Positions 11,695-61,517 of a DNA stretch of 64,000 bases are shown here, in pieces. Position 1 is the first letter of the stretch. Every line of letters starts with the position of its first letter. Below the pieces are notes generated by a model. It was not told the DNA's origin. It saw only the letters and a program-made list of their open reading frames with translations, and did not search any database. The position numbers were made by a program, and so were the translations under genes. The DNA comes from an uncultured bacterium (GTDB lineage: Bacteria; Krumholzibacteriota; Krumholzibacteriia; G020349025), in the NCBI GenBank assembly GCA_964567755.1, contig CAZMNW010000020.1:110434-174433 (forward strand), in the 5' to 3' direction.

Positions 11695-11909
11695 CGATCA
11701 CCCGTTCCCGAACCGAAGGATCGAGGCGCCGCGGATCAAGTCAGTGGTGCCGGCATTGTACTCGACGCGGAGAAGGCGAAAAAGACCAGTAGCCCTCCCC
11801 TCGGACGCCTGCGGACCCCCTGTCCCCATTCCGGTCGGTCTCGCGTTCTTCAGCATGGAATCCATCGCGCTGTGGCGTCTGGCTTCAGCGTCAACGAAGG
11901 AGGTCTTGC

Positions 11910-42911: not shown

Positions 42912-43790
42912 GTGAGCATGAAACCCAAGTTCGTCTTGCATCGGGCGCGTGCCGATTCGCCCTTTGTCTCATGGAGGGCGTGGGCGCTCGCGATCTGGTC
43001 TTTGACGATCTGCGCGCGGGGTCTGCACGCGCAGAGCCAAGAAGACTCACTGTCTGCTTCAGGGGAAGAACAACCGACGGCAGCGTCTTCTCTCGATGTC
43101 GATTCGTCCCTGGAGCAAGCGCGTGTGTTCATGACCTCCCTCGAATACGAGAAGGCAATCGCGGTTCTCGAGCCCGTGCTCGAAGAGACCCGTTTCAACC
43201 CCGATCGGTTGCGGGAGACGTATCTCCTGCTCATCGAGGCGCACGTCTATGGCGGCAACCGCAGTGCGATCGGCAGCAAGGAACAGCAGCTCTGGTACGA
43301 CGAGGCGCGCGATCTCATCCGCGAGTGCCTGGGCGTGCGCGAGCTGCGTCACACGCTGCCGGACCCGCCGGAACGTTACCCGAGCGAAATGCTCGGGCTC
43401 TTCGAGTCGGTACGGCGCGAAACCTTCGGGGCTTTCGAGATCACCCAGCTTGAGCCACGAGATGCCGAGGTGGTCTTCGACGGCGAGACACTCGTTCCCG
43501 GTGACGACGGCGTTTGGCGCGTGGCGAACGTCCCAGTGGGTGTCCGCATGCTGGTGATCCGGAAGTCGGGTTACGAGGATTTCACCGAGGATGTCGAGAT
43601 CGCGCCCGCGACGCTGGTCTCGCGCCCGTATGAGTTGCGTAAGAGAAAGGGTTTCGGGTGGTACGCGACGCGCGTCGCGGCTCCTGTCATGGTCGCCGTC
43701 GGTGTCGTGGTGGGACTGACCGCGGGTGGGTCGGAAACCCCTGCCGCGGAGGAACCCCTGCCCGTCCCGCCGTTGCCGCCCGGGAAGTAG
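42912..43790 (+). CDS. secreted PEGA-domain protein with C-terminal TM helix
   Basis: Signal-like SWRAWALAIWSLTICARGLHAQ; PEGA-like AEVVFDGETLVPGDDGVWRVANVPVGVRMLVIRKSGYEDF; C-terminal hydrophobic VAAPVMVAVGVVVGLTAGG. Confidence 0.6.
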   Translation: MSMKPKFVLHRARADSPFVSWRAWALAIWSLTICARGLHAQSQEDSLSASGEEQPTAASSLDVDSSLEQARVFMTSLEYEKAIAVLEPVLEETRFNPDRLRETYLLLIEAHVYGGNRSAIGSKEQQLWYDEARDLIRECLGVRELRHTLPDPPERYPSEMLGLFESVRRETFGAFEITQLEPRDAEVVFDGETLVPGDDGVWRVANVPVGVRMLVIRKSGYEDFTEDVEIAPATLVSRPYELRKRKGFGWYATRVAAPVMVAVGVVVGLTAGGSETPAAEEPLPVPPLPPGK

Positions 43791-43863
43791 GCATCGCTCG
43801 GCATCGCGAGTCGGTGGCGATCGGGCTGCGTGAGGGTTGCAGTGCGATGGGGCAACGTCCGGA

Positions 43864-45807
43864 TCAGTCGCGGCGGCCGCCCTGCAGGAGCCGGCGCAGC
43901 CACGGTTGCCGATCGCGAGTGGAGATCTCGGTTTCCACGAATCCCCTGAAGCAGCGCGAAAACAGCTCCGATTCCCCGTTCTGAGTTTCCAAATAATGCT
44001 TGCGACGCAGGTTCTCGCACACATGGTGCAGCGAGGCCGGGATCTTGCGTCCCTCCGCGACACGGAGTATCGCGCTGCGCTCGTGCGGATCGAAGGCATC
44101 CCACATGAAACGGTAGTGGAAGCGCGCTTCCTCGTAGAAGCGGCGCCGGATCTCGTCGAAATCGGGGTCGCCGCCATGGCCTTCCTCGAGATACTCGAGG
44201 CTGTGGCTGCAGGCGATCTGCAGGAAGAACGGGAACAGGCCCGCCATCTCCAGGATCTGACGCTCGTGAGACAGAAGCGGCCGTTGCACGTCGGCAGAGG
44301 GTACCTCTATGAGCTCGCGCGCTTCGTCGGGGCGGAGCACGCTGAGTGGCAGTGGCGTGAAGATGTTGAAGAATGGCGAGTCACGAATCTCCTGGGTATG
44401 GCAGAGCTGTTGCAGGTCACGCGCCGAAGAAGTGATGTAGGCGACATTGTAGTGATTGGCGAGATAGCGCAAGAAAGAAAAGAACTCCAAATCGAAGTTC
44501 GCATTCGTGGTGATGGCTTCGAACTCGTCCATGAGCAAGACCAAGCGCAAATCGCCGCCGTGCAAACGGTCGACCAAATCCTTGATGCCGCTCAAGTCGC
44601 GACTGCAGTCCGAGACGTCCAAGCGTCCACGTAGCTCGAGATTGGCGATGCCGAGCACCGTATTCACGAACGTATCGAGCGCCATGTTCTTTTGCTGTTG
44701 CAAATCGACGTAGACCATGATGGTCGATTCGTGGTCCTCCAGATGCTGCTCGCGGTTGCGTTTCGTGTAGATGAAATTAAGCAGCGACGATTTGCCGATC
44801 TTGCGGTCCCCGACCACCGAAACCGAACCTGGCGGTGTGGCATTCAAACGCGAGAAGATGCGGTTGACCTCTTGCTTGCGCCCGAAGAAATCCGCGGAGC
44901 TCTTGATCATGACCCGGTTCAAGTACGGATTCTTGAGCTTGGGCGCAGGGCGGGGAAGGGCCTTGGGCAAAGTCATCGTGCGGCTGGTGCTCTGCACATC
45001 CGACGAGACCAGAATCCCTTGCAGTCGCTCGGCGAGCGCCCCCGCTTCGACCGGACGCTGACCCGGCTGTTTGCGCAGACATTGATCGATCAGGCTCACC
45101 AGGGCTTCGGGCGCCTGTGGCGCGGCTTGCTGCACGGGCGGATGCGGGCGGTCGACGATGTTGTAGAGCGTGGACATGAAGTGCTCGGCCTCGAAGGGAT
45201 GCAACCCCGTCACCATCTCGTAAAGAATGACACCGAAGCTGAAAATGTCGCTGGCAGGGGTCGCTTTGTGGCCGTCGATCACCTCGGGAGCCATGTATTT
45301 GAGCGTGCCGGCGATGCCGTGACTGACGGTGACGGACATCCGGTTGATGTCGCGTGCCATGCCGAGATCCAGGATCTTGGCGCGGTCGCTGTCGTCGACC
45401 ATGACGTTGTTGGTCGACAGATCGCGGTGCACGATCTGCAAGCTGTGCAGCGCCTGGAGCCCGCGCGCGACCTGGATCAAAATGCGAAGACTGCGCTCCA
45501 GAGCCAGCGGCGGCTGCTTGGGAATGTCGCGCAGGGTGCGTCCGGGGAAATACTCCATGACCATGTAGGGGACGGACTCGTCCATGTCGTAGACCTGGAC
45601 CACGTTCTCGTGGTTCAGGCTGGCGAGACGGCGGGCCTCGGCCAAAAAGCGTTTCATCTCCTTTTCTTCGGCGATCTCGGGCTTGAGCATCTTGAGCGCG
45701 ACGCGGCGATCCAGTTTCTTGTCGTGACAGAGGTAGACCAGACCGAAAGACCCGTGGCCGAGCGTTTCGAGAACGACGTAATTGTTGCCGAAAATTTGTT
45801 CCGTCAT
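43864..45807 (-). CDS. Ser/Thr protein kinase fused to a C-terminal P-loop NTPase (AAA-like/STAND-like) domain
   Basis: Kinase motifs GHGSFGLVYL, VALK, HRDLSTNNVMV, DLGMA, APE; then NPYLNRVMIKSSADFFGRKQE...VSVVGDRKIGKSSLLNFI (Walker A) ...LVLLMDEFE (Walker B). Confidence 0.85.
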   Translation of the reverse strand: MTEQIFGNNYVVLETLGHGSFGLVYLCHDKKLDRRVALKMLKPEIAEEKEMKRFLAEARRLASLNHENVVQVYDMDESVPYMVMEYFPGRTLRDIPKQPPLALERSLRILIQVARGLQALHSLQIVHRDLSTNNVMVDDSDRAKILDLGMARDINRMSVTVSHGIAGTLKYMAPEVIDGHKATPASDIFSFGVILYEMVTGLHPFEAEHFMSTLYNIVDRPHPPVQQAAPQAPEALVSLIDQCLRKQPGQRPVEAGALAERLQGILVSSDVQSTSRTMTLPKALPRPAPKLKNPYLNRVMIKSSADFFGRKQEVNRIFSRLNATPPGSVSVVGDRKIGKSSLLNFIYTKRNREQHLEDHESTIMVYVDLQQQKNMALDTFVNTVLGIANLELRGRLDVSDCSRDLSGIKDLVDRLHGGDLRLVLLMDEFEAITTNANFDLEFFSFLRYLANHYNVAYITSSARDLQQLCHTQEIRDSPFFNIFTPLPLSVLRPDEARELIEVPSADVQRPLLSHERQILEMAGLFPFFLQIACSHSLEYLEEGHGGDPDFDEIRRRFYEEARFHYRFMWDAFDPHERSAILRVAEGRKIPASLHHVCENLRRKHYLETQNGESELFSRCFRGFVETEISTRDRQPWLRRLLQGGRRD

Positions 45808-45809
45808 GT

Positions 45810-48020
45810 CTACCCTTCCTCGCGCAGCACACGCAGCTTCTGTGCTTCCCAGACCAGCTCGAGGCGCTGGCCTGGCTGAATATCCACCGCGAGCTTGTCG
45901 CTCTTGCCGTCACGGAAAACGACTTCGATCGTATGCCGACCGGCCGAGATCTCTTGTTCCCCAGAGCTCGGCAGCTCGCCCGAGCCCACCTGACGCTCGT
46001 CGATGTAGATACGCGCTGGGCGGTCACCGCGGACGAGCAACATTCCCGCGGGCACCGAGCTCAGGCGCAGACGCAGGTGCTTGGTGGAGTGATCCACGAC
46101 CAAGGTCGTGTCCACCATGACGTACCCGGCCATCTCGGCGCGGAAGAGATGCGAGCCGAATGCGAGCGCCGCGATCACGAGCGGGGCGACACCGCGTTTC
46201 TGGCCGTCGACATGGATCTCTGCCCCGTCAGGGATGGTGACGATGTTCAGGCTCAGTGTGATGGGTTCGAGCCGGACACGGATCGCGATCGTCGTATCGG
46301 GCAGCACGCGTACCGATCGTGCCAGAGTTTGGAAGCCGTCTTGTCGCACCTCGATCGCATGCTCGATGGGGACCCCCAAGCGGGTGATTTCAGCCGTCCC
46401 GGTGCCTATCTCGTTGCCGTCGATCCAGATACGAGCCGTCGCGGGATCGGCCTCGATGCGCAGCGCACCGTGTTGGGGTTGCAAAGCCACCCGAACCGAA
46501 GCGGAATCGGTTGCAGCAACCCGGGTCACGAGCGTCGAATCGTGAAAACCGGGCGCGCTGAGCACGAAACTCACATCGCGGTTCGCAGCAACGGCACGTT
46601 CGAACCGCCCCATGGCGACCGGTTGGCCGTCGAGGAGGATTCTCGCTTCAGGCGGCTCGACGACGAGACGAAGAAAGCCGCTCCTCGAGGCCACGAGGGC
46701 GGGCGGATCGATGCCCGCCGCGTCAGCTCCGTCGTCCGCCGGTTGTGATCGTGGCCAGAGGGCCCAGCTCCCCACCACGAGACCGGCGACGCCTGCGGCC
46801 GCGAGCGCCACCCATCGGGCCCGCCGCGACGGCGGCGAACGGAACGCGAGCCCCTCTTCGTGCATCACCTGCCAGACGGAATGCATGCGCCGGATCCACA
46901 GGCGCCAGAGGTCCATGCGAAACGCGAATTCAGGCGGTCGCACGTCGCTCTTGGTCAGCAGCTCTTGCTTGAAGAGAGTTTCCAGAGCCGTGGAAATCTC
47001 GGGACGCGTGAGACGTAGAGGGTAGTTTCCATTCTTGAGCGTGATGGTGAGATGTTCGGCGCTGGCGTGGCCGCTGGCGGTCTCGATGCTTTCCGCCAAC
47101 AACGCGAGCGTCAGTTTTTGCTCTCGCTGCAGCGTGTCCCACAAGAACGTCATCTGCGGGAATGGATGCTCCACGATCATCTCGACGACCACGTCCAGGA
47201 TGGCGGCGGTGACCGTGTTCGTGCGGTCTTCGTTCAAGGCGTCGACGAGGTACTGGCACACCGCCTGAGTGAAGAAGGGGTGCCCGGCGGTGAGACGCAG
47301 GATCGATTGCACGGTGTCGTCGGCGTACGTCACCCGACCGCTCACGGGTTGCTGGATGAGACGCAGGGAATCCGCCGGTTGCAAGTAGCTGATGCGACGG
47401 TATTCGTGCGCTTTCTCGAGAATGCCCCAGTACTCTGTGCGCCGCTCTTCCAGGTGCTGCGAACCGGTGAAGATGAGGAACATCGGCAAGTTCTCCATGA
47501 GATTGGCGAGGATGAGAAGAACGTCTTTCGTGAGTACGCCGTTGTCGAGTTTGTCTTCGAACAACTCGTACTCGTCGAAGAGCAGCAGGAGCTTGCGATG
47601 CGGACAATGCTCGAGTACGGATTCGATGAAGGAGCGGAACACGGCCGAAGGATTGCCGCGGGCGAAGTCCGGGATCTCCAGACTGCGACCTTCCTCCGCG
47701 AGCTGTTCGACGACTTCCTTGGCGATGAGTGACAGGAACTCCGTTTCGTCCTCCACCGCCATGGCTTGCATGTCGATGAGAACGGGGATGAACTCGCTGC
47801 CGAGTCGTCCCTGCTGGATCTGCAGCAGGATCGAGGTCTTGCCGCTACGGCGCTCGCCGCAGAAGACCATGAGGGAGCCACGGCCGGCCTGCTTGAAACG
47901 TTTCTGCACCAGCTCGAACTCGGACTCGCGGCCGAAGAACATCTCCGGATTGCGCACGGGATTGCCGACGATGAAGGGATTCGGAGAGATGGGTACGAAC
48001 TCGGGAGGCGTCGGGCTCAT
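45810..48020 (-). CDS. P-loop NTPase (same family as the kinase-fused domain) + TM helix + tandem PEGA domains
   Basis: NPFIVGNPVRNPEMFFGRESE...LMVFCGERRSGKTSILLQI (Walker A) ...LLLLFDEYE (Walker B); TM WVALAAAGVAGLVVGSWALW; C-terminal repeated PEGA-like segments (ARILLDGQPV..., ARIWIDGNEIG..., AEIHVDGQKRG..., ARIYIDERQVG...). Starts 3 bp after the upstream kinase-NTPase stop. Confidence 0.8.
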   Translation of the reverse strand: MSPTPPEFVPISPNPFIVGNPVRNPEMFFGRESEFELVQKRFKQAGRGSLMVFCGERRSGKTSILLQIQQGRLGSEFIPVLIDMQAMAVEDETEFLSLIAKEVVEQLAEEGRSLEIPDFARGNPSAVFRSFIESVLEHCPHRKLLLLFDEYELFEDKLDNGVLTKDVLLILANLMENLPMFLIFTGSQHLEERRTEYWGILEKAHEYRRISYLQPADSLRLIQQPVSGRVTYADDTVQSILRLTAGHPFFTQAVCQYLVDALNEDRTNTVTAAILDVVVEMIVEHPFPQMTFLWDTLQREQKLTLALLAESIETASGHASAEHLTITLKNGNYPLRLTRPEISTALETLFKQELLTKSDVRPPEFAFRMDLWRLWIRRMHSVWQVMHEEGLAFRSPPSRRARWVALAAAGVAGLVVGSWALWPRSQPADDGADAAGIDPPALVASRSGFLRLVVEPPEARILLDGQPVAMGRFERAVAANRDVSFVLSAPGFHDSTLVTRVAATDSASVRVALQPQHGALRIEADPATARIWIDGNEIGTGTAEITRLGVPIEHAIEVRQDGFQTLARSVRVLPDTTIAIRVRLEPITLSLNIVTIPDGAEIHVDGQKRGVAPLVIAALAFGSHLFRAEMAGYVMVDTTLVVDHSTKHLRLRLSSVPAGMLLVRGDRPARIYIDERQVGSGELPSSGEQEISAGRHTIEVVFRDGKSDKLAVDIQPGQRLELVWEAQKLRVLREEG

Positions 48021-48364
48021 GATCCTTCTCGCGCCGGGGGAGTCGTCCGCAGAAGGTGCCGTCGTTGCCGTCGCAATGGTCCCAATACCTTATAACGTAG
48101 CACAGGACTGAAAGGGGTCCCATGCCGTGTCCAGCCTTGAGAATTGCAGGATCGCAACTCCCGTTTCGCCGCTGATGCTGAATGAGACGCCATCGATGGG
48201 GGAGCGGACGCCGGACACCAGGCACTTCCATGGCCCCTCCACGCACATTCCTACGTTCTCCATGTAGCCGATCGAGCGGTGGCCATGACCACAGGGGCGC
48301 AAGCCCTAGCGACGGTGTGGGTTGCAGGAAAAACGGTTGTCGACCGATCGTTGGAGGGCGGGCG

Positions 48365-50245
48365 ATGAAGAAGACTCTCATTTCGGCCTTTTTGGCGACG
48401 CTCGTGATCATGAGCTTCACGGCCCGGGACGCACGCAGTGCCGGTCCATCGCCGGACCGGGTTTCCGCGCTTCTGAACAGCCTGCGCCTCGATCCGGGGC
48501 GATCCTCTTCCGGCACCCTCGGGCAGCCACGTTTCGGCTACGACAAGGACGGTTGGATTCAGTATCTCGGGGCTCCTGCCGGCTACGCGTTCCCGGCTAC
48601 CTCCAGTCAGACCACGCCCGAGGTGGTTGCCCAGACTTTTCTGGACGACAATCGTGACCTCTTCGGAGTCACCACCTCCGCGGTGAAGTTCTCGGTCAAG
48701 CGCACCAAGAATCTCGAGAATCGCCGTTTTGTCCGATTCGAACAAACCTACGCCGGGATCCCTGTCTTCGCTGCCGGGATCCTCGTGCAGTTGGACACGG
48801 CGAACGGAATCCAAGCGGTTTTCAGCGACTTGCTCACGGATACTGCGCGCATCGATCGCAACGAGATTTCGCTGTCGCCAAGTCTCACCGCCGAGCAAAT
48901 CATAGATCTCGTCGGCGAGCGCCTGGAGCCTAAGACCGCGGCGATGCCGGTCGAGGTCAAGGCGCTCGGCCTCCTGCTCTTCGCCCCGCCGGTTCTGGAT
49001 CTGAAGGGCGACATCCAGCTAGTGTGGCTGGTCGAGACCCAAAGCGAAGACGTCCTTGAAGCGAACCGTCGCCTGCTCGTGGACGCCCACGATGGATCGG
49101 TCGCCCGCGATTACCCGCGCTACTACTCCCTCGATCGATTGATCCACGACGCTGGCAACATGGACCAGGATGGCCCTCTCGTGCGCGCCGAAGGCCAGGC
49201 CCCCATTGGGCTTGCCGACGCGAACCAAGCCTACGATGCTATCGGAGACACGTACTCTTTCTACTTGGAGAATCACGGACGCGTCGGAATCGGAGTTCTT
49301 CCACTTTTCCCTCCCTTTTGTGGATATCTCACCGAATGCGCGACCGTACGATACTGCGACCCTGATGACCCTTGCCCATGGCAGAATGCGCGCTGGAGTG
49401 AAGGATCTCGCCGCATGTACTTCGGCTCCGGGTGGGCAGTGGACGACGTTGTCGCCCACGAGTACACGCACGGCGTGACCGACGCAGAATCCGATCTGAT
49501 CTACGAGAACACCCCGGGGGCGATCAACGAATCTTTCTCCGATATCTGGGGTGAGTACGTCGACCTGACGAACGGGCGCGGCAACGACGCAGCCATCGTG
49601 CGTTGGGTCATTGGCGAAGACCTCGTTCGATCCCTCCGCGACATGGAGGACCCCCCTTTTCGCGGCGACCCGGATCGCTTGAGCAGCCCCTTCTATGCCC
49701 CGTCCGTGAGCAATCCGGACGATACAAACGACTTCGGCGGCGTCCACAGAAATAGCGGCGTCAGCAACAAGCTGTGCTTTCTCCTCACCGATGGCGACAC
49801 TCTCGGCTTCAACGGGCAGACTGTCTATGGCATGGGAATCCCAGTTGTGGCGGATCTTTTTTATGAGGTGAATGCAAACCTCTTCACAGGTACAGCGCCC
49901 AACTGGTTCAATTACTACCACGCTTTGCAGCAGGCGGCGATCAACCTCGGCTGGAGCGACGCCGACCAGAACAATGTCTACGCCGCTTGCCTGGCGGTCG
50001 AGATCGTCGATGTGGGGCGGACCGTCGTCGTGGATGGGAGCTCGACGTGTCCGGCGGTGATTTACAATCCAGTCTGCATCCTCGGTGCAGGTCCGTACAC
50101 CACCGTGACCGCAGGCTCGAACGCTGTGCGCCCGGGCGAAACGCTCTCGATCCGCGCCGGCAACTACGACGAGCTGGTCACGTTTGGCAAGCGCAACGTC
50201 ATCGTTCGGAGCGAGGGAGGAATCGTGCGGATCGGACCTCCATGA
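48365..50245 (+). CDS. secreted M4-family (thermolysin-like) zinc metallopeptidase with propeptide
   Basis: Signal MKKTLISAFLATLVIMSFTARDARSA; VVAHEYTHGVT (HExxH) and GAINESFSDIWGE (third zinc ligand Glu) typical of M4; RBS GGAGGG upstream. Confidence 0.85.
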   Translation: MKKTLISAFLATLVIMSFTARDARSAGPSPDRVSALLNSLRLDPGRSSSGTLGQPRFGYDKDGWIQYLGAPAGYAFPATSSQTTPEVVAQTFLDDNRDLFGVTTSAVKFSVKRTKNLENRRFVRFEQTYAGIPVFAAGILVQLDTANGIQAVFSDLLTDTARIDRNEISLSPSLTAEQIIDLVGERLEPKTAAMPVEVKALGLLLFAPPVLDLKGDIQLVWLVETQSEDVLEANRRLLVDAHDGSVARDYPRYYSLDRLIHDAGNMDQDGPLVRAEGQAPIGLADANQAYDAIGDTYSFYLENHGRVGIGVLPLFPPFCGYLTECATVRYCDPDDPCPWQNARWSEGSRRMYFGSGWAVDDVVAHEYTHGVTDAESDLIYENTPGAINESFSDIWGEYVDLTNGRGNDAAIVRWVIGEDLVRSLRDMEDPPFRGDPDRLSSPFYAPSVSNPDDTNDFGGVHRNSGVSNKLCFLLTDGDTLGFNGQTVYGMGIPVVADLFYEVNANLFTGTAPNWFNYYHALQQAAINLGWSDADQNNVYAACLAVEIVDVGRTVVVDGSSTCPAVIYNPVCILGAGPYTTVTAGSNAVRPGETLSIRAGNYDELVTFGKRNVIVRSEGGIVRIGPP

Positions 50246-50456: not shown

Positions 50457-53400
50457 TCAGCGTTGGACGACGACTTTCTGCTTCCACGTGCGCGCTCCGA
50501 ACGAGGCACGGAAGAAGTAGACCCCCGCCGGAACGCGGGTGCCGCCATCGTCGTGGATGTCCCATTGCAACCGGTGTCGACCCGCCGGCTGCAGGCCGCG
50601 CACGAGCGTGCGCACACGCTGTCCACGGGCGTTGAAGATGGAAACCTCCACGAGGGCGCTGCTTTGGAGATCGAAGACGACGCTTGTCCACTGCGTCGCC
50701 GGATTGGGATGGATGCGCTCGATGGCGACAACGGCCGCGGGTTCGCCGGCCAGAGGCCCGAGTTTGGTGGCGGCGCCGGAGCGAACTTCGACCGCGACGG
50801 CGGCCCAGTCGCCGGTGCTCTCAAAGCTCCCGTCGAACACGGTTGACGGCGAAGTGGCGCTGCGGTCCGCGACCGCGAGGCCGGCGACGCCGCCGCCCGA
50901 GCCCTGGTGCAGCTCGATGCGCTCCGACCACCCGGGACCTGGTGTGTTGACGCGGCCGCGCATGGCGACACCCCCGAACACGGCGGATCCGCTCTGTGTC
51001 GCGAGCGTGAGCGAATACGCCGGGCCATCGATGCCGTTGCTGCAGCTCCCATCCACACCGTTGGTATTGCCGGAAACGATGCTGCCGATCGGCGTGGTCG
51101 CATGCGCGCCGGAGTAACGCGCCACAGCGATCAACGCGTTTTCTACCGGCGACGCCAAGGTGGCGCTCACGCTGCCGGGACCGGGTGTGCCGCGCGCCAT
51201 CCAGATCTCGATGCCGGTCTGGCCGCGGCCGGCGCACTGGGCGCGGACACGCGTCCACACGAGCCCCAATCCGGTGACGGCGGTCACGTTGCGAATCGGT
51301 TTGCTGGCAATGCTGGCGAGAAAGAGATCGCCTTGGGCGCCGCTCGGCGCTGCCGTGGTCGCCACGCTGGCGATGGCCGAGGACGCGCCGGACTGCACCT
51401 CGACGAAGGTGACACTGCCCGCGGTCGTGCCGCCGACGTTCAAAGTCACCGTCGTCTCGGCGCTCTGCAGGTTGCCGTCGCTGGCACGATACGTGAAGCT
51501 GTCCGCGCCGCTCCATCCGCTCGCGGGCATGTAGGTGAACGATCCATTGGATTGGAGCACCAGCGTGCCGTGATCGACGTCGTTCTGCAGCACGGCGCTC
51601 AAGCCCTCACCATCGGCGTCGCTGTCGTTGCCGAGAACACCGGGAGCCGCGACGGCGAGCGTCGCGCCCGCTTGCACGGAGTAACTTTCCGTGGCCGCTA
51701 CGGGCGCATCCGGCGCCGGCGTCACCGTGATCGTGACGACGGCGGTGTCGGAACCACCGTTGCCGTCGCTGGCGCGGTAGGTGAAGGCGTCGGTGCCGTG
51801 GAAGTTGGCCTGCGGCGTGTAGGTGAACGCACCGCTCGATTGCAGTGACAGCGTGCCGTGTGTGGGCTGCACCGTGACCTGTGCCATGAGCGGATGGTTT
51901 TCGGCATCGGTATCGTTGGCGAGAACGCCGGGTGCCGCGACTGCAAGAGTCACATCCTCGGCGACCGTGTAACCGTCGTCGACGGCCACGGGGGCGGTGT
52001 TGCCGGGCCCGGGTCCCGCCGGTAGCTGCAGCACGAGCTGCGGTTTGTTGGCGCTCTCCTTCGAGCCGTAGCGGCCGCTGTTGGACGACGTGCTCTGCAA
52101 CGCGAAGCTGTAGGTGCCGTCGCCGGTGATCGCAGAAGTGACGTCGAACTCGATCCACGTGCCGCTCGAGACACTGCCAATCGTGGTGAGCGCTGGCGCC
52201 GTGATCGCCGGCGCGTTGTTCGCGTGGATGCCGGTTTCGACCCAGGGTGTCGTCGTGCCCACGTAGTTATTCGAAACTGCATGCATCGTGCCGGCGATGG
52301 GGGTGCCATCGATGACGTAGAGCCGCAGCTTGGCGACATCGAATGTGCTCACCCCAGAGAGCGTGAACTTGAGATAACTCTTGTACGTGCTGCTGCCAGA
52401 CTTCACCCGCATCTCGGTGGCAGCGCCGAAGTTGCTGGTGGATCCGGAGCGGATATACGCATCCGCCACGGGGTTGAAGACCAAGGTCGCCGGTGTCCCG
52501 GCGCTGTCGTTGTCACGGATGGTGCCTTGTCCACGCGCGTCGGCGAGCGTGGCGTTGCTCGCGTTCGAAAGATCGACGAAGAAAGTTTCGTCAGGCTCGT
52601 CGCCGGTGTCCCCGAGCACCGGCACGGAGATCGTGCGCGACGTGGTGGAACCACTGAAGCTCAAAGTTCCCGACGAGGTGGTGTAGTCCGCGCCGGACTG
52701 GGCGGAACCGTTCGTGGTCGCGTACTGGACGCTCACCGTTTGGCCGTCGGGGTTGGCAAGCGTGACGGTGAAGACGGCGGTGACCGAGCCAGTGTCGCCT
52801 TCGTCGATGCTCGCATCCGAGATGGCGAGCGAGGGCGTCGTCGACCCGCCGCAAGGTGGACGGCTCACGGGCTGCGAGTTGTTGTCCCACGGGTTGCGCA
52901 CGAACTGAAACATGTTGGAGGCGTCGAGCGTGGCGGTGACCTGAACGGGGAGCTCCTGGCCGCCCTGCTCCACCTGCACACGCGTGACGTTGGTGGCCGA
53001 AAAGGGTTTGTCCAGCATCCAGCTGTGGCCATCGCCGTGGATGTAGAGGATCGGCTTGGCGAAGCTCTGTGCTGCCGCGTCGAACGGGCTGAAGAAGGTG
53101 GAGCGATTGCCGCCCGGGCCGGCTTGGGCGAAGACGACTGCGCCGCGCACTTGCGACGCCTGCTGTTGCAGGTGCTGGCTCACCCAGGCGGCGTCGTCTT
53201 GCATGATGCCGCTGTCATTCGAGCCGCCGACGAGGTTGATGCCGAGGAACAGCACACCCTTGTAGACGAACGAGAAGTTCTCCTGTCGCCCGCTCTGGCG
53301 CGACGTGGATGGCGAGCAGGTCCAGTTCGATTCCAGCCCCAGTAGGTACTGCACCCAGTATTGCCAGCCCTGGGAAGGACTCGAGCAGTCCGTGGTTTCG

Positions 53401-53808
53401 TTGTCCCCCGGGACGATGTAGGCGGGCACCAGCGAAGATTTCAGGATGTCACGCACGGTCCGGTAACGGTCCTCGGCGCAGCTCTCGCTGCCCGATTTGA
53501 TGTCGCCGACGTGGATGAAGAACTCCGAGGGACTGTACAGGTCGTGCTCGTCGATCTGTTGTTGGAAAGGCGCGACCTCGCTGCTGCCGTAGGGCACGTC
53601 GCCGGTGACCGAGAACGTCACCGGGCTGTTGGCGATTTGGTCGGGAGTGTTGGCATCCGCGGAGCTGCTGCTCCACGTGATTTGTGGCGCGAGCAAGCTC
53701 GCAATGGTCAGGGCGAAGATGAATGGACGAACGCAGGCTGGCTGCGGACAGCGAGAGCGTGCGCTCGAGCCATAAGTCGGAGGCACTCGGTGGTTCATGG
53801 CTGAGCTG
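50457..53808 (-). CDS. secreted multidomain protein: calcineurin-like metallophosphoesterase + Calx-beta + two cadherin-like/bacterial Ig-like domains + FlgD-Ig-like C-terminal domain
   Basis: Start uncertain (ATG 53808 or upstream to 53945); phosphoesterase motifs HVGDIKSG, VPGDNETTDC, IHGDGHSW; Calx-beta segment (SDASIDEGDTGSVTAVFTVTL...YATTNGSAQSGADYT); PVAVDDGYTVAEDVTLAVAAPGVLANDTDAENHPL repeats; C-terminus ERIHPNPATQWTSVVFDLQSSALVEVSIFNARGQRVRTLV...GVYFFRASF. Confidence 0.8.
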
Positions 53809-53945
53809 AAGCTCACCCGGCGATTAACGGGGCGCGCGATCGCGGGTCTATGTCCTGGCTTCGACCCTCCTTCCGGGGCGTTAAGGGTGCAGAAGCAGGT
53901 CCCCTTGCGGGACCTGTAAATGAGAACGAGATCATCGTGCATCAA

Positions 53946-55204: not shown

Positions 55205-56623
55205 ATGCTGCGAGGTCTGGTCAACTTCATCGGGCGCGCCAGCGGAGATGCCCTCGGTCTGATCGCAATCACCCTCTTGGGTGTGACTGGGGTGACCTTC
55301 CTGGGGCTCATGGCTGTTCAGCTCACGAGCCGGGAGCTGTCGCCGTACCTCGGAATCGTCATGTATCTCGTGCTCCCGGCCGCATTCGCCACCGGGCTCG
55401 GGCTCCTCGGGCTGTCGCGCTGGCGCGTGCGGCGAGCGCAGAGGAGCGGCCGGCCGGTCCCGTGGCAGCTCGACCTGACGAACCCGGCGCATCGCGAGCG
55501 TCTCGGTGTCTTCGCCTTCGTCGCGCTGGCCAGCATCATCATCTTGGCGCTCAGCGCCTACCACGGCGTGCATTACATGGACTCGACCAGTTTTTGCGGC
55601 GAAGTGTGTCATGTGGTGATGGAACCCGAGTTCGCGGCGTATCAGAACTCGCCGCATGCACGCGTCAACTGCACGGACTGCCACATTGGGCCGGGCGCCA
55701 GCTGGTTCGTGAAGTCGAAGCTTTCCGGCTCGCGGCAACTCCTGGCGGTGGCGCTCAAGACCTACCCGCGTCCCGTGCCGGCTCCGATCGAGAATCTACG
55801 TCCGGCACGCGAAACGTGCGAGCAGTGCCACTGGCCCGCGAAGTTCCACGGCGATCGCATGAAGGTCCACCTGCGTTTCCAAGAAGACGAAGCCAATACG
55901 GCGCTCAAGACGGTTCTCCTGCTCAAGGTCGGTGGCGGCAGTCTCGAGTCGGGGTTTGCGGAAGGCATCCACTGGCACATGAACCTCGCCAATCGCATCG
56001 ACTACCGCGCCGACGAGAACCGCGAGAAGATCTACTGGATCAGGGTCGAGGACCGGGATGGCCACGTGCGCGAGTACTGGAAGGAGGATGGCCTCGAACG
56101 GCAGGCGATTCTGGCGCTGCCGGCGCGCCGGATGGATTGCATGGATTGCCACAACCGTCCCACGCACGAGTTCGACCGGCCGAGCGAAGCGCTGGACGAG
56201 GCGCTGCAGACCCGACAGATCGCTCCCGATCTGCCGTTCCTCAAGCGCGAGGGGCTCCGATTGTTGCAGTCACCGCACGCGACCAAGGCGGAGGGCGTGC
56301 AGAGCTTTGCGCCAGGGCTCGTCGACTATTACGCGCGCGAGTATCCAGAGCTCGCAGCGGCACGACGAATCGACATCGAGGCTGCCGCCGCCGTGCTGCA
56401 GTCGATCTACGCGCGCAACATCTTCCCGGCGATGAACGTGACCTGGGGTACGTACCCGAATCACATCGGACACCAGGACGACGGCGGCTGTTTCCGCTGC
56501 CATGACGAAGGACATACGACCGATGACGGGCAGACGATCAGCCAAGATTGCTCGACCTGTCACGTGCTCCTGGCTCACGAGGAGGCGGATCCAGAGGTGC
56601 TGCGGGTCCTGCGTGGCGAATAG
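55205..56623 (+). CDS. inner-membrane multiheme c-type cytochrome, NapC/NirT-superfamily, ImcH-like
   Basis: Three N-terminal TM helices, then CGEVCH...CTDCHIG (NapC/NirT-like spacing) plus CEQCH, CMDCH, CFRCH, CSTCH (six CxxCH). Confidence 0.8.
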   Translation: MLRGLVNFIGRASGDALGLIAITLLGVTGVTFLGLMAVQLTSRELSPYLGIVMYLVLPAAFATGLGLLGLSRWRVRRAQRSGRPVPWQLDLTNPAHRERLGVFAFVALASIIILALSAYHGVHYMDSTSFCGEVCHVVMEPEFAAYQNSPHARVNCTDCHIGPGASWFVKSKLSGSRQLLAVALKTYPRPVPAPIENLRPARETCEQCHWPAKFHGDRMKVHLRFQEDEANTALKTVLLLKVGGGSLESGFAEGIHWHMNLANRIDYRADENREKIYWIRVEDRDGHVREYWKEDGLERQAILALPARRMDCMDCHNRPTHEFDRPSEALDEALQTRQIAPDLPFLKREGLRLLQSPHATKAEGVQSFAPGLVDYYAREYPELAAARRIDIEAAAAVLQSIYARNIFPAMNVTWGTYPNHIGHQDDGGCFRCHDEGHTTDDGQTISQDCSTCHVLLAHEEADPEVLRVLRGE

Positions 56624-56700
56624 GGTCTGAACACTCGTGCTGTGCGAGCCTGTCGCATGACCGAGTTGTCAGCCGGAATCGCGAGGAAGGAGATCAGCGA

Positions 56701-58731
56701 ATGCGAGCCTGCCTCGTCACCCTGATCTCGATGTTGTGCATGGGCGTGCTGACCGCGAGCGGTTCACTGCGGGCGCAGGAGGCGCCTGTGACCAACGCTT
56801 GTCTCGAGTGTCATGGTACGGACGGCGTGCGCGATGCGACGCAGCCGCTCGACGGGATGAGCGTATTCCGGGGAGACTGGGAAGCCAGCGTCCATGCTGG
56901 GTTGGAATGCACGGATTGCCACACCAGTCTGCAAGCGCTGCCGCATGATGTGCCGTTGCCGCGCGCCGAGTGCTCTGCCTGCCATCCGGATGAAACACGA
57001 GCTTACGCGCAAAGCACGCACGGGCGGCTCTGGGCCGCGGGTGACAGCCTGGCGCCTTCCTGTGCCCAGTGTCACGACCCGCACGCGGTGCGCCCCTCCG
57101 ACGATCCTACGAGCGTCTTGCATCGCACCCATTTGGCCGCTGTTTGCATCGTCTGCCATGGAGATGCCAACGGGGTGGGTGCGCGTCCGACCGCCGTACC
57201 CCGACCGGCCCAAACGTACGCTCGCGGCGCGCATGCGCAAGCGATGGCTGCGGGCAACCAAAAGGCAGCGACATGCAAGGATTGTCACGATAGCCATGCG
57301 GTTCTCGGCGCCAGCGATCCGGCATCGCCGATCTACTACAGCAATGTTCCGCACACCTGCGGGCGTTGCCACGTGCAGGAATTCGAGGCTTACCACACCA
57401 GCGTGCACAGCGCCGGTGCCGAACAGGGAGCGACGGGATCACCCGTGTGCAACACCTGCCATGGCGAGCATGCGGTGGTGGATTTGGGCGAGGCCGGGCA
57501 GTCCGCCGTCGTCGCCAGCGAGACCTGCGAGAGCTGCCACCAAAGCCCGGCCTTGGCACGGCGCTACGATTTGCCGGCGGGAGCGGTGGCTTCGTACGAG
57601 GACAGCTACCATGGACGCGCGGCGCGCGGGGGGCTGGCGCGGGCTGCGGGTTGCACCAGCTGCCATGGAGTGCACCGAATCCTGGCGGCCGCGGATTCCG
57701 CCTCGTCCATTCATCCGGCAAACCTGACGGTCACGTGCCGCCGCTGCCACGAACAGGCGAGCGCGGAATTCGCCACTTCCTACGCCCATGCGCCGCGCGC
57801 CGCGTCGGCGGCCGACCGCGGCACGGCGACCGTACGCAACATCTATGGATGGCTCATCGGGATCGTCATTGGCGGAATGTTGCTGCACAATCTGGTGCTC
57901 TTCGCACACGACATGCGCCGGCGCTGGGCGCATCATCGCGCGCACGCGACGCACGTGCGGCTCGTAGGCAGCGAGCTGCGGCAACACGCGGTGCTCCTCG
58001 TCACCTTTTCGGTCTTGGTGTTCACCGGTTTCGCCTTGAAGTACGACCACACCTTCTGGGCCCGCTGGCTCGAGGCGATCGGCATGACCGAGGAGGTGCG
58101 GCGAATCGTGCACCGAGTCGCCGCGGTCGGCATGATCTTGGTGTCGATCGCGCACATGGTCTACCTGTTCGGCCGGCGCGGGCGCGAACAGCTCGGTCAC
58201 ATGACCCCGCGGATGCTCGACTTGCACGAGCTGGGGCAAAACCTGTCGTACCACTTGGGGCGGCGGTCGATGCCGCCTGCATTCTCCCGCTTCCGTTACA
58301 TCGAGAAGGCAGAGTACTGGGCACTGCTGTGGGGCACGATGGTCATGGTGGCGACGGGTCTCGTGCTCTGGTTTCCCGACCAGCTGCGGGGACCGAGTTG
58401 GCTGGTGCGCGTGGCCGAGGCGGTGCATCTCTACGAAGCCTGGCTCGCTTTCCTCGCCATCGTCGTCTGGCACTTCTTCTTCGTCATGCTGCGGCCGGGA
58501 ACCTTCCCGCTCTCCTTCACCGTCTTCACGGGCCGCATGGAACCGGAGGAGCTCGAGCACGAGCACCCCCAAGAGTTCCACGCGCTGGCACCGCGTCGCC
58601 TGCACCGGCCACCACCCGGGACACCGGAGCCGCCCGCATCGGCAGGCTCGGGCGCACCGATCGAGCCGGCCGGTGGCGACGAGACACCGCCGCTTCCGGG
58701 GGCGGACCACGAGCCGGGACCGCGATCGTGA
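56701..58731 (+). CDS. CbcL-like fusion: periplasmic multiheme cytochrome c (11 CxxCH) + C-terminal diheme cytochrome b-type membrane domain
   Basis: Signal MRACLVTLISMLCMGVLTASGSLRA; 11 CxxCH motifs; C-terminal 4-5 TM helices with conserved His (LHNLVLFAHDMRRRWAHH..., VAEAVHLYEAWLAFLAIVVWHFFF) as in HydC/FdnI-type b cytochromes. Confidence 0.85.
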   Translation: MRACLVTLISMLCMGVLTASGSLRAQEAPVTNACLECHGTDGVRDATQPLDGMSVFRGDWEASVHAGLECTDCHTSLQALPHDVPLPRAECSACHPDETRAYAQSTHGRLWAAGDSLAPSCAQCHDPHAVRPSDDPTSVLHRTHLAAVCIVCHGDANGVGARPTAVPRPAQTYARGAHAQAMAAGNQKAATCKDCHDSHAVLGASDPASPIYYSNVPHTCGRCHVQEFEAYHTSVHSAGAEQGATGSPVCNTCHGEHAVVDLGEAGQSAVVASETCESCHQSPALARRYDLPAGAVASYEDSYHGRAARGGLARAAGCTSCHGVHRILAAADSASSIHPANLTVTCRRCHEQASAEFATSYAHAPRAASAADRGTATVRNIYGWLIGIVIGGMLLHNLVLFAHDMRRRWAHHRAHATHVRLVGSELRQHAVLLVTFSVLVFTGFALKYDHTFWARWLEAIGMTEEVRRIVHRVAAVGMILVSIAHMVYLFGRRGREQLGHMTPRMLDLHELGQNLSYHLGRRSMPPAFSRFRYIEKAEYWALLWGTMVMVATGLVLWFPDQLRGPSWLVRVAEAVHLYEAWLAFLAIVVWHFFFVMLRPGTFPLSFTVFTGRMEPEELEHEHPQEFHALAPRRLHRPPPGTPEPPASAGSGAPIEPAGGDETPPLPGADHEPGPRS

Positions 58732-61517
58732 ACGCACACCGGTCGCGCATCGTCGGGCTCTGGATCGCGATGCAGATCCTCGCCTTGGCGCCGGCAGTCG
58801 GCGCAGCCCCCGTTTCGGTTTGCCTCGAATGCCATTCCGACGCCGATCTCGCCACGGAGCGTCAGGGGCAGACGGTGTCGCTGTTCGTCGACCCCGCGAT
58901 CCTGCAGCAGAGCGTGCACCGGGGGCTCGAGTGCGATGATTGCCACCTGGACGTGGATGTGGAGAACCTGCCGCATCCCGAGCGTTTGCAGCCGGTGCAC
59001 TGCGCGACTTGCCACGACGATGCGCAGGTGGATTTCGACGCCAGCATTCACGGACAAGCGCTGAACCGCAATGCACCCTTCGCGCCTTCGTGCCGCGAGT
59101 GCCACGGCACCCACGACATTCGCTCGGCCGCAGATCCGACGGCCCCGACCTACAAGATGAACGTGCCCTTCCTCTGCGGGCGCTGCCACCGGGAAGGCGC
59201 GCCCGTGTCGCGTTATTACGACATCTCGGAGCACAACATCCTGGAGAATTACAGCGAGAGCGTCCATGGGGAGGCTTTGTTCAAGAAGGGGCTCATCGTC
59301 ACGGCCACCTGCACGGACTGCCACGAGGCGCATCGGATTCTGCCACACACCAATCCGCTTGCATCCATCGCGCCGCGCAACATCGCCAAAGCCTGCATGA
59401 AGTGCCACACTCGCATCGAGCAGGTTCACGTGCAGGTGATTCGCGGCGAGTTGTGGGAGAAGCAGCCCGGCGCCATCCCGGCCTGCTCCGACTGCCACGT
59501 GCCGCACAAGGTACGCAAGGAATCGATGGAGCTGCTCCTGTCGGATCGGGATTGCATGAAGTGCCATGCCGCTTCCGACGTGCACAAGGTCGTGGACGGC
59601 GAGAGGGTCCCGCTCACCGTGAGCGTGGAGGACATTGCCACCTCGGTGCATCAGAACATCGCCTGCGTCAAGTGCCACTCCGACGTGGACCCGCGCCGCC
59701 GGCGGCCGTGCGAGACGGCGGGCGCGGCCAATTGTTCGAATTGCCACGTGCGCATGCAAGACGAATACCGTGAGAGCGGCCACGGCAAGGCCTTCGCCGC
59801 CGGCGTCAAGCAAGCACCGACGTGCACGACCTGTCACGGCACTCATCGCGTGCTCGGACACCAGGACGAGGCCGCTCCGGTCTATCGCGCCTCGGTGCCA
59901 GAGCTGTGCGGCAAGTGTCATCGTGCCAATGGCGCCGCAGGGGAAGTGGCGCAACTGTCGCAGACGACGGCGCTGGCGGACTATTCGTCCAGCGTGCATG
60001 GGCGTGCACTGACGGAGAAGGGGCTGCTGCCGAGCGCCGTCTGCATCGACTGCCACGGATCGCATCTGATTCTCGGTCACGCGGACGAGCGCTCGAGCGT
60101 CTTCAGCCGCAATGTGCCGGGAACGTGCGCCAGCTGCCATCGCGGCATCTACAAGCAGTACGCCAAGAGCATTCACTTCGGCGCGCGCAATGAAAAAGGC
60201 GAGAAGTTGCCGAACTGCACCGACTGCCACTCGGCGCACACCATCCAGCAGGTCGAGAAGGACCAGTTCATGCGCGAGGTGACCGATCAATGCGGTTCCT
60301 GCCACCGGGATCTCGCCGCGACCTATCTGGAAACGATGCATGGCAAGGCCTACCGGCTCGGCTACACGGGGTCGGCGAAGTGTTCCGACTGCCATGGAGC
60401 GCACGAGATCCTGGGCACGGACAATCCACTCTCGACCGTCGGCATGCGCCACATCGTCGACACTTGTAAACAGTGTCATGCGGACGCGACGATGCGGTTC
60501 ACCGGTTATCTCACCCATGCGACGCATCACGATCCGGTCAAGTATCCGGCGCTCTACTACACGTACTGGGCCATGACCTTGTTGCTGGTCGGAGTGTTCG
60601 GGTTTTTCGGTCTGCACACTCTGATGTGGCTGCCGCGGTCGTTCCGCGCCCTGCGCGAGCGGCGCGCCCATGCCGCCGCCGGCGAGCCACGGCACTACAT
60701 CCAGCGCTTCACCCGCATCCAGCGGCTGACGCACCTGTTCGTCATCCTGAGTTTTCTGACGCTCGCGCTCACCGGGATGATGCTCAAGTTCTCGTCCATG
60801 CCGTGGGCCGGCTTCATTGCCGGGGCGCTCGGCGGCGTGCGTGGAGCCGGCATCATTCATCGCATCGCGGCCTGCGTCACCTTCGGCTACTTCATCCTGC
60901 ACTTGGGAACCCTGCTGGCGATGAAACGCCGGCGGCGCATGAGCGTGAAGCAGCTCGTGTTCGGCGCGAACTCGCTGATGTTCAATCGGCGGGACCTGAG
61001 CGAGTTCTTGGCGACCTTGCGCTGGTTCTTCCACCGCGGGCCACGCCCGGCCTACGGCCGTTGGACGTACTGGGAGAAGTTCGACTATCTGGCGGTGTTC
61101 TGGGGCGTGGCGATCATCGGCGCCTCGGGTCTGCTGCTGTGGTTCCCCGAGTTCTTCACCCGCGTGCTCCCGGGCGCCTTGATCAATGTCGCGACGATCA
61201 TCCACAGCGACGAGGCGTTGCTCGCCGTCGGCTTCATCTTCACCATCCACTTCTTCAACACGCACCTGCGGCCCGAGGTCTTCCCGATGGACACGGTGAT
61301 TTTCACCGGTCTCGTGCCACTGGCAGAATATCGCAAGGACCGCCCGGCGGAATACGAGGCGATGAAAGCAAGTGGCGAGCTGGCCAAGCGCGTGCGCCGG
61401 CAGACGATCTCGAAGCGGGCCGAAATCATGGTCCGCATCTTCGGTTACACGTTTCTCGGCATCGGCATCGTCCTCATCGGCCTCATCCTCTATTCGGTGC
61501 TGCGCGGCTACAAGTAG
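58728..61517 (+). CDS. CbcL-like fusion paralog: about 19-heme cytochrome c domain + C-terminal cytochrome b-type membrane domain
   Basis: Start uncertain (GTG 58728 overlapping the upstream stop, or ATG 58770); about 19 CxxCH motifs; C-terminal TM helices with His ligands (THHDPVKY, IIHRIAACVTFGYFILHLG, IIHSDEALLAVGFIFTIHFFNTHL). Confidence 0.85.
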   Translation: MNAHRSRIVGLWIAMQILALAPAVGAAPVSVCLECHSDADLATERQGQTVSLFVDPAILQQSVHRGLECDDCHLDVDVENLPHPERLQPVHCATCHDDAQVDFDASIHGQALNRNAPFAPSCRECHGTHDIRSAADPTAPTYKMNVPFLCGRCHREGAPVSRYYDISEHNILENYSESVHGEALFKKGLIVTATCTDCHEAHRILPHTNPLASIAPRNIAKACMKCHTRIEQVHVQVIRGELWEKQPGAIPACSDCHVPHKVRKESMELLLSDRDCMKCHAASDVHKVVDGERVPLTVSVEDIATSVHQNIACVKCHSDVDPRRRRPCETAGAANCSNCHVRMQDEYRESGHGKAFAAGVKQAPTCTTCHGTHRVLGHQDEAAPVYRASVPELCGKCHRANGAAGEVAQLSQTTALADYSSSVHGRALTEKGLLPSAVCIDCHGSHLILGHADERSSVFSRNVPGTCASCHRGIYKQYAKSIHFGARNEKGEKLPNCTDCHSAHTIQQVEKDQFMREVTDQCGSCHRDLAATYLETMHGKAYRLGYTGSAKCSDCHGAHEILGTDNPLSTVGMRHIVDTCKQCHADATMRFTGYLTHATHHDPVKYPALYYTYWAMTLLLVGVFGFFGLHTLMWLPRSFRALRERRAHAAAGEPRHYIQRFTRIQRLTHLFVILSFLTLALTGMMLKFSSMPWAGFIAGALGGVRGAGIIHRIAACVTFGYFILHLGTLLAMKRRRRMSVKQLVFGANSLMFNRRDLSEFLATLRWFFHRGPRPAYGRWTYWEKFDYLAVFWGVAIIGASGLLLWFPEFFTRVLPGALINVATIIHSDEALLAVGFIFTIHFFNTHLRPEVFPMDTVIFTGLVPLAEYRKDRPAEYEAMKASGELAKRVRRQTISKRAEIMVRIFGYTFLGIGIVLIGLILYSVLRGYK

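Follow-up and report, generated by a model that had tools for sequence, protein, structure and literature searches.

A candidate membrane-spanning signalling switch split over two paralogous STAND-type NTPases in an uncultured Krumholzibacteriota bacterium

In immunity, apoptosis and the control of transcription, ATPases of the STAND and NLR type are known to act as cytoplasmic hubs built from a single chain. In the classical STAND regulators, which comprise MalT, AfsR, PH0952, the cyclase-ATPase-TPR proteins and the MNS clade with the archaeal PF01637 ATPases SSO1545 and PABY2304, the effector, the nucleotide-binding oligomerisation domain (NOD) and the sensor are found in one cytoplasmic, homo-oligomerising chain. 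A two-gene arrangement has been put forward by Kaur et al. (2021) for the nSTAND2 family. In section 15 and Fig. 6C of that paper (PMC8195603) it is presented as a computationally predicted counter-invader system that forms a toroidal hetero-multimer, and its operon is described as mobile, mostly proteobacterial, and composed of a gene for a STAND nucleoside triphosphatase (NTPase) with a winged helix-turn-helix (wHTH) domain, followed by a gene for an inactive nSTAND2 protein with a wHTH, TPRs and a HEPN or GT4 domain. Here, we describe a gene pair related to that operon, found in a 64,000-nucleotide stretch of DNA, called the window throughout (positions 110,434 to 174,433 of contig CAZMNW010000020.1, assembly GCA_964567755.1), from an uncultured bacterium of the Krumholzibacteriota. 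Gene A encodes a soluble protein kinase fused to an nSTAND2 NTPase module, and the adjacent gene B encodes a protein in which a paralogous NTPase module is followed by a transmembrane helix and PEGA domains. With moderate confidence, we read this locus as a heteromeric, membrane-spanning STAND-type signalling switch that is split over the two paralogous NTPases.

The locus is a variant of the predicted nSTAND2 two-gene operon, and its two-chain, membrane-spanning organisation with a signalling output has not been described previously. As in the published operon, each of the two adjacent genes encodes a STAND NTPase with a winged helix, and A falls in the Pfam family that was derived from Kaur et al. 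2021 (PF20702). However, one partner of the published operon is eroded in its NTP-binding motifs, whereas both proteins here keep GK[ST] and DE. Furthermore, the published effectors are HEPN or GT4 domains with TPRs, while a kinase, a cyclase, a sigma-54 enhancer-binding protein, an OmpR-type wHTH or a PP2C phosphatase takes their place in this locus and its relatives, and the other partner here is a predicted membrane receptor. The published operon is also mobile, whereas the present one is syntenic within the Eisenbacteria, with no mobility genes among the open reading frames (ORFs) scanned in the window. The earlier note on this DNA, made from the sequence alone, had held that the pair could not be assigned to a named system. 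Several defining features of the nSTAND2 operon are lacking here, but the statement has to be amended in that A is an nSTAND2 protein by Pfam and a related two-gene operon had been predicted, as section 15 of PMC8195603 sets out. The system had been glimpsed in that work, but the text of the section contains no discussion of it, and no other description was found in the literature on PEGA and kinases, on STAND NTPases and PEGA, or on Eisenbacteria and kinases.

Other described systems share single features with the locus. Compared with the classical STAND regulators, sensor and output are here carried by separate paralogous chains, of which the sensor chain is predicted to span the membrane. 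The receptor Hanks kinases (PknB-PASTA and kinase-transmembrane-PEGA proteins) likewise pair a Hanks kinase in the cytoplasm with a domain that lies outside it and is associated with the cell wall, but they do so in one polypeptide, by way of a transmembrane helix, whereas here two polypeptides would be bridged by paired NTPases. A further likeness is found in the iSTAND ternary systems (vWA-MoxR-iSTAND, PMC7159879), some of whose iSTAND proteins work at the membrane, with a transmembrane segment ahead of PEGA, OmpA or PASTA domains. Nevertheless, the iSTAND modules are catalytically inactive and dependent on vWA and MoxR proteins, while both NTPases of the present pair look active. An assignment to the iSTAND/MoxR-vWA ternary system was rejected, since the neighbours include neither a MoxR nor a vWA gene and the Walker motifs are intact.

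Both genes are long ORFs on the reverse strand, exactly where the earlier note had placed them, gene B at 45810..48020 (736 residues) and gene A at 43864..45807 (647 residues). Only 2 nucleotides lie between the TAG stop of gene B and the ATG of gene A (GGG TAG AC ATG), and because of this spacing the two are taken to form one operon, with gene B as its upstream and gene A as its downstream member. The divergent intergenic region of 161 bp between gene B and a gene for an M4 peptidase (48021..48181, no strand) is presumed from its position to hold the promoter of the operon; a scan of 43600-48400 for sigma-70 promoter and terminator consensus sequences brought up nothing, its counts being indistinguishable from those of shuffled sequence.

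Residues 1-395 of B (46836..48020) form an NTPase module with a P-loop core, a helical lid and a winged helix, in which the motifs NPF, GNPV, FFGRE, Walker A GERRSGKTS(IL), Walker B LLFDEYE and a GxP-type lid motif, AGHPFF, can be recognised. The Walker A GERRSGKTS and the Walker B LLFDEYE are invariant in 36 orthologs. A single transmembrane helix follows at residues 403-422 (46755..46814; Kyte-Doolittle peak 1.85; helix 399-421 in the model), with the basic stretch RSPPSRRAR on its N-terminal side and acidic residues on its C-terminal side. By the positive-inside rule, these flanking charges lead to a predicted topology with the NTPase in the cytoplasm and the PEGA domains on the far side of the cytoplasmic membrane. 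The latter, four tandem beta-sandwich domains of the PEGA type, occupy residues 446-736 (45813..46685) according to Pfam and the AlphaFold model, with PF08308 scoring 71.9 bits against a cut-off of 20.8 and two stretches passing it, and they constitute a putative sensor or anchor outside the cytoplasm. The AlphaFold model, based on 36 orthologs, has a predicted local distance difference test score (pLDDT) of 87.4 and displays a five-stranded P-loop core with the lid and the winged helix within residues 1-390, followed by a disordered linker that precedes the beta-sandwich units at 447-512, 517-583, 588-652 and 659-735. No significant relative was found when the PDB was searched with the sequence of B, and a fold search with the model returned STAND NTPases such as Avs among the structural neighbours. 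Full-length relatives of B amount to more than 120 clusters at 41-60% identity (best BLASTP segment; most with at least 90% query cover), and all of those with a source name come from Candidatus Eisenbacteria. The B-type module itself accounts for 933 clusters at 50% identity (E<=1e-30).

Gene A starts with a protein kinase domain at residues 1-275 (44983..45807), where Pfam Pkinase matches residues 10-253 with E=6e-55. It has the glycine-rich loop GHGSFG, VALK, the glutamate of helix alphaC, the catalytic loop HRDLSTNN, DLG in place of DFG, and APE; the glycine-rich loop, VALK, the glutamate, the aspartate of HRD, the asparagine, DLG and APE are conserved in 14 orthologs, and the catalytic loop follows the pattern HRDLS-x-(N/R/K)-N in all 14. 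The loops HRDLSPRN and HRDLSAKN of some orthologs are reminiscent of the pattern of tyrosine and TKL kinases. The HRDLS loop resembles that of the TKL/LIMK-type kinases, which lack the lysine of the catalytic loop and are nonetheless active. The nSTAND2 NTPase module follows at residues 293-642 (43882..44931), as delimited by PF20702, profile comparison and the model, and comprises NPY, FFGRK, Walker A GDRKIGKSS(LL), Walker B LLMDEFE, a GxxP lid motif and a winged helix. In the AlphaFold model of A (pLDDT 87.4), a kinase fold is joined through a disordered linker at about 281-290 to a module of NTPase, lid and winged helix, and a hydropathy scan of A revealed no hydrophobic helix. The Walker A and B motifs are kept in the long A-type partners, which together with their relatives are treated below, and the motif SPFFNIF is nearly invariant in A-type modules (motif table of 84 relatives). 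A profile of 84 A-type modules matched 2fna (SSO1545) in the PDB with E=9e-11.

Conservation is highest in the NTPase module of either protein, as would be expected of a shared interaction core. Mean identity reaches 57-58% in the two NTPase modules (57% in that of B), against 44% in the kinase of A and 33% in the PEGA domains of B, which are the least conserved folded part of that protein. The two modules align with 22% identity over about 340 residues by BLASTP (E=5e-10), and profiles of A-type and B-type modules match each other over 309 columns with E=1.6e-39 (hhalign); from their sequences they are homologous and paralogous, yet they belong to distinct families. The module of A is matched by PF20702 at residues 326-587 with 142.2 bits against a cut-off of 24 (E=2.6e-41). 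B has no match to PF20702 at E<=0.1, so only gene A is counted as an nSTAND2 member; B also lacks the SPFFNIF motif, and its NTPase gives nothing but sub-threshold matches to AAA_22, ATPase_2 and AAA_16. The observation of the earlier note that two adjacent genes carry the same NTPase module is borne out by the ORFs and by both alignments, as is the architecture it gave, a kinase fused to the NTPase in A and a transmembrane helix with four PEGA domains in B, by Pfam, hydropathy and the AlphaFold models. With regard to the motifs that it quoted, NP(Y/F), FFGR, GK(S/T)S and DE(F/Y)E occur in both proteins, while G.PV is confined to B.

The features that define the STAND class according to Leipe et al. 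(2004) are largely found in both proteins, namely a Walker A of the form GxxxxGK[ST], a Walker B of the form hhhhD[DE], and a helical lid with a GxP-type motif and a winged helix immediately after the NTPase core. Judging from these motifs, both NTPases look catalytically active. A C-terminal sensor made of repeats (TPR, WD40, LRR or HEAT) on the same chain is absent; gene A stops just past the winged helix, and gene B runs on into the transmembrane helix and the PEGA domains. TPR, HEAT or PD40 repeats are nevertheless found on some B-type relatives from other phyla.

In order to follow the pair beyond this genome, one genome per species was scanned by pattern matching to B, which yielded 80 loci. 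The ORFs of these loci are simple gene calls that were searched with the four domains of the A and B proteins of the window, and the sample was drawn via B, so that it gives the frequency of an A partner per B and not the reverse. At least 3 kb of DNA was available downstream of 63 B-type genes. An A-type (nSTAND2) gene follows on the same strand within 3 kb in 51 of these cases, and in 56 of them one is present on the same strand within 3 kb on either side. These pair loci come from Eisenbacteria, Krumholzibacteriia, Latescibacterota, Calditrichota and Spirochaetota, as well as Acidobacteriota, Cloacimonadota, Bacteroidales, Desulfobacterales and Chloroflexota, and adjacency is maintained over about ten phyla at 27-60% identity. 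Furthermore, the pairwise distances between B modules correlate with those between the adjacent A modules (r=0.94; 50 pairs; permutation p<=0.001). Both genes have been inherited as a unit. The adjacency of A and B is far beyond chance.

The domains attached to the two modules are divided between the chains. A match to nSTAND2 is present in 84 of 84 A-type partners, and the domains fused to it are Pkinase in 26, Guanylate_cyc in 20, Sigma54_activat in three, Trans_reg_C in three and SpoIIE in one; SpoIIE fusions to nSTAND2 are numerous among the database relatives. In the 49 B-type proteins surveyed, 65 families were matched, and the 25 most frequent of them include PEGA (15 proteins), CarboxypepD_reg (7), Peripla_BP_6 (3) and Reg_prop (3, Reg_prop/Y_Y_Y), in addition to HEAT, TPR, PD40 and FGE-sulfatase domains and, once, a kinase. 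A transmembrane helix beside the NTPase module, and outside it, is seen in 67 of 78 B-type proteins versus 2 of 83 A-type proteins. The partition is strict, with B-type proteins as receptors without outputs and A-type proteins as outputs without sensors; between them, the two chains supply the effector, the NOD and the sensor that a classical STAND protein has in one. A joint function of A and B is consistent with two variants: in one locus (L064, 9080-13003) the kinase is found on the B-type chain instead of the A-type chain, and in a protein of 751 residues (P0260; L084, 273-2528) an A-type and a B-type module are present in a single chain, although the latter is weak support, coming from one metagenomic contig. 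The conservation of the neighbourhood, which the earlier note had named as a check, is thus evident in that the pair is not confined to one genome, and the transmembrane signalling role that it had considered agrees with the comparative data, with kinase, cyclase, sigma-54, OmpR-type wHTH and PP2C outputs on A-type proteins and membrane-anchored sensor domains on B-type proteins.

Outside the Eisenbacteria, the pair is mostly part of a triad made up, in this order, of B, a short stand-alone nSTAND2 protein of about 330-370 residues and a long, output-bearing nSTAND2 protein. Triads with the short paralog are seen in loci L018, L019, L026, L029, L031-L033, L040-L043, L048, L049, L053, L057, L058 and L060-L062. 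The Walker B motif of the short paralog is DDF or DNF versus DEF, and because of this replacement the protein is probably hydrolysis-dead and would bind nucleotide without hydrolysing it. Neither a short nSTAND2 paralog nor any further copy was found in the window, and the Eisenbacteria version consists of two genes only, whose products both look competent for catalysis from their motifs.

In the mechanism that we propose, gene B would provide the receptor half, with PEGA domains outside, a transmembrane helix and a cytoplasmic NTPase, and gene A would provide the output half, with the kinase and the nSTAND2 module. A change that most probably affects the peptidoglycan or the glycan layer of the envelope would be sensed by the PEGA domains and relayed through the transmembrane helix, and would free the NTPase module of B from a closed, ADP-bound state. 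B in its ATP-bound form and A could then co-oligomerise via their paralogous modules, the clustered A kinases would be activated by induced proximity and trans-phosphorylation, and the switch would be reset through ATP hydrolysis. The steps of the nucleotide switch are modelled on MalT and PH0952, for which the published accounts (PMC4381067, PMC6468293) describe an inducer that opens the closed, ADP-bound form; the open form binds ATP and assembles into multimers that serve as an activating hub. A likely source of the signal for gene B is the envelope. In Kaur et al. (2020), PEGA is regarded as a domain that associates with peptidoglycan (PMC7159879).

Several points weigh against this mechanism. 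The lysine of the catalytic loop is replaced by serine (HRDLS) in 14 out of 14 orthologs of A, and the activity of the kinase is assumed. Moreover, an nSTAND2 gene within 3 kb is missing for 7 of the 63 B-type genes, one of which lies on a complete Eisenbacteria chromosome (L009). Domains of conflict type are present on a few partners, namely a caspase on one (L056, 1120-3132) and EAD7 on another (L071, 4363-5949), and no linked gene for a substrate, an FHA-domain protein or a phosphatase was seen among the ORFs scanned in the window. Finally, the third paralog is missing here, so the two-gene form may work differently.

Beyond the present locus, it can be proposed, tentatively, that the pair loci represent a widespread and so far undescribed class of 'split STAND' transmembrane receptors, in which a membrane-bound B-type protein and one or two soluble nSTAND2 proteins would co-assemble in a nucleotide-dependent manner and drive interchangeable outputs. 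Should this be true, the outputs that are switched on would include a Ser/Thr kinase, a nucleotide cyclase, a PP2C phosphatase, a sigma-54 activator and an OmpR-type DNA-binding domain, and the class would form a parallel to two-component systems and receptor kinases in Eisenbacteria, Calditrichota, Spirochaetota, Latescibacterota, Acidobacteriota, Cloacimonadota and Chloroflexota. It would also constitute a heteromeric, membrane-spanning version of the STAND proteins, extending STAND logic to transmembrane sensing, and it would add a signalling architecture that counts hundreds of family clusters, in phyla that have been little studied and are for the most part uncultivated. Its modular outputs offer a test bed for the coupling of ATPase oligomerisation to different effectors.

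The earlier note had also raised a conflict or defence role. According to this explanation, the locus would serve in conflict or in protection against phages, as a two-gene system of the nSTAND2 type; its paired NTPases would detect an invader, and the kinase would be an abortive-infection effector that phosphorylates host or phage proteins. It has in its favour that gene A belongs to nSTAND2, a family defined in the predicted 'counter-invader' operon as section 15 of PMC8195603 presents it, that Avs-like STAND NTPases are structurally near, and that a few relatives carry caspase or EAD7 domains. Strong matches to PADLOC kinase models are obtained as well (mad6, E=1e-77; PD-T4-6, E=8e-75), but the matches (PD-T4-6, MADS mad6, Stk2 and MkoA) are confined to residues ~3-293 of A, which is the kinase domain, with none in B, and the scanned ORFs of the window include no partner genes of the PADLOC kinase systems. 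The NCBIfam scores are likewise far below the cut-offs, with 188 versus 460 bits for MAD6, 61 versus 990 for PglW and 263 versus 450 for PknB_PASTA. A defence assignment through PADLOC or NCBIfam was rejected, as only a generic kinase domain is matched and the NCBIfam scores lie below the curated cut-offs. The Walker A and B motifs are kept in both NTPases, as opposed to the one eroded partner of the described system. No HEPN or GT4 domain was found by Pfam in A or B, nor among the 25 most frequent families listed for the 84 A-type partners, nor among the matches listed for the 49 B-type partners (25 of 65 families); the outputs of the family are overwhelmingly regulatory, and its sensors are of extracytoplasmic ligand-binding types. 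In comparison with the operon of Kaur et al. (2021), which was made against its inactive partner only, a profile of six published inactive nSTAND2 sequences gave hhalign probabilities of 1.5% against the long A and 2.2% against B, that is, no detectable match to either, and 96% (E=2e-9) against the short third paralog of other phyla. A tblastn search of plasmids with WP_008322742, a member of the published alignment, found no match, and no homolog was found in a protein search at E<=1e-10. Full-length conservation and synteny with envelope genes in the Eisenbacteria-type relatives (mostly metagenomic) speak against this role too, as does the lack of integrase, transposase and defence genes in a scan of the larger ORFs from 5 to 61 kb of the window. 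A defence role thus appears improbable for this locus, and it should be borne in mind that not every match to nSTAND2 or to a kinase means 'defence'.

Two further explanations were considered. The pair could be a dedicated regulator or assembly factor of the adjacent envelope cluster, described below, which consists of giant FG-GAP and beta-propeller proteins and a protein of 292 residues (p292), and could monitor or control their export or anchoring instead of serving as a general sensor of the environment. Homologs of p292 adjoin the pair in at least eight Eisenbacteria-type loci (L004, L005, L008, L010, L012, L016, L030 and, weakly, L065), and one adjoins B even where gene A is absent (L001/L009); FG-GAP/FlgD_ig giants flank the pair in the window and in L002, L004, L008, L010 and L030. 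However, this synteny is found in a single phylum and might be due to nothing more than vertical inheritance, other phyla have the NTPase pair without FG-GAP or p292 genes and with different sensors and outputs, and the ORFs scanned in the window included no secretion-system genes. We regard such a dedicated role as unlikely, and it is a special case of the signalling switch more than a true alternative. Alternatively, A and B might act independently, A as a self-oligomerising Hanks kinase with an ATPase regulatory domain and B as a separate membrane ATPase, their adjacency resulting from co-regulation or tandem duplication. STAND modules usually homo-oligomerise, as published work on them has it, and some B genes do lack an adjacent partner. 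Against this stand the persistence of the adjacency across distant phyla and the co-divergence of the two modules, the complementary partition of transmembrane helices and sensors versus outputs, which is hard to explain without a joint function, and the existence of swapped (L064) and fused (P0260) architectures, all of which make independent action very doubtful.

With regard to the genomic neighbourhood of the pair, p292 is encoded at 42912..43790 on the forward strand, convergent with gene A, and is a candidate accessory component of the A-B system. An N-terminal signal or transmembrane segment is followed in this protein by a helical region and a beta domain resembling PEGA, and a further transmembrane helix is C-terminal (251-274). 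A Pfam search with the p292 of the window gave no match, and its homolog in L001 carries PF08308 PEGA. On the Candidatus Eisenbacteria chromosome OY970342 (L009, identical to L001), gene B lies at 9983-12178 of the locus with the 292-residue neighbour present, and no kinase-nSTAND2 gene occurs within 10 kb of it. Upstream of p292, a run of about 27 kb on the forward strand (16276-42899) encodes nine giant secreted proteins, four DUF5122/Rax2 beta-propeller proteins followed by five FG-GAP proteins of up to 1683 residues. Most of these giants end in FlgD_ig-like domains, which are possibly sorting domains for type IX secretion, and the GC skew is positive along the run.

On the other side of the pair, divergent from gene B, a thermolysin-like M4 metallopeptidase is encoded at 48182-50245 on the forward strand, next to a surface protein of 1162 residues with Calx-beta, CBM96, Big_9 and cadherin domains and a FlgD_ig C-terminus (50457-53945, reverse strand). 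Neither of these two genes is conserved beside the pair in other loci. A DUF2461 gene is also found on this side. Farther along, multihaem cytochromes are encoded on the forward strand at 55205-61517, including a NapC/NirT-like protein of 472 residues and a protein of 1383 residues with many c7/c3/paired-CXXCH motifs, a cluster that suggests extracellular or periplasmic electron transfer. At the other end of the window, a second Hanks-type Ser/Thr kinase of 614 residues with C-terminal TPRs, unrelated to the NTPase pair, is encoded at 9284-11128 on the reverse strand, and a histidine kinase with HAMP, HisKA and HATPase_c domains at 5216-6967 on the forward strand. A scan of the larger ORFs from 5 to 61 kb brought up no integrase or transposase gene and no restriction gene or other gene for defence.

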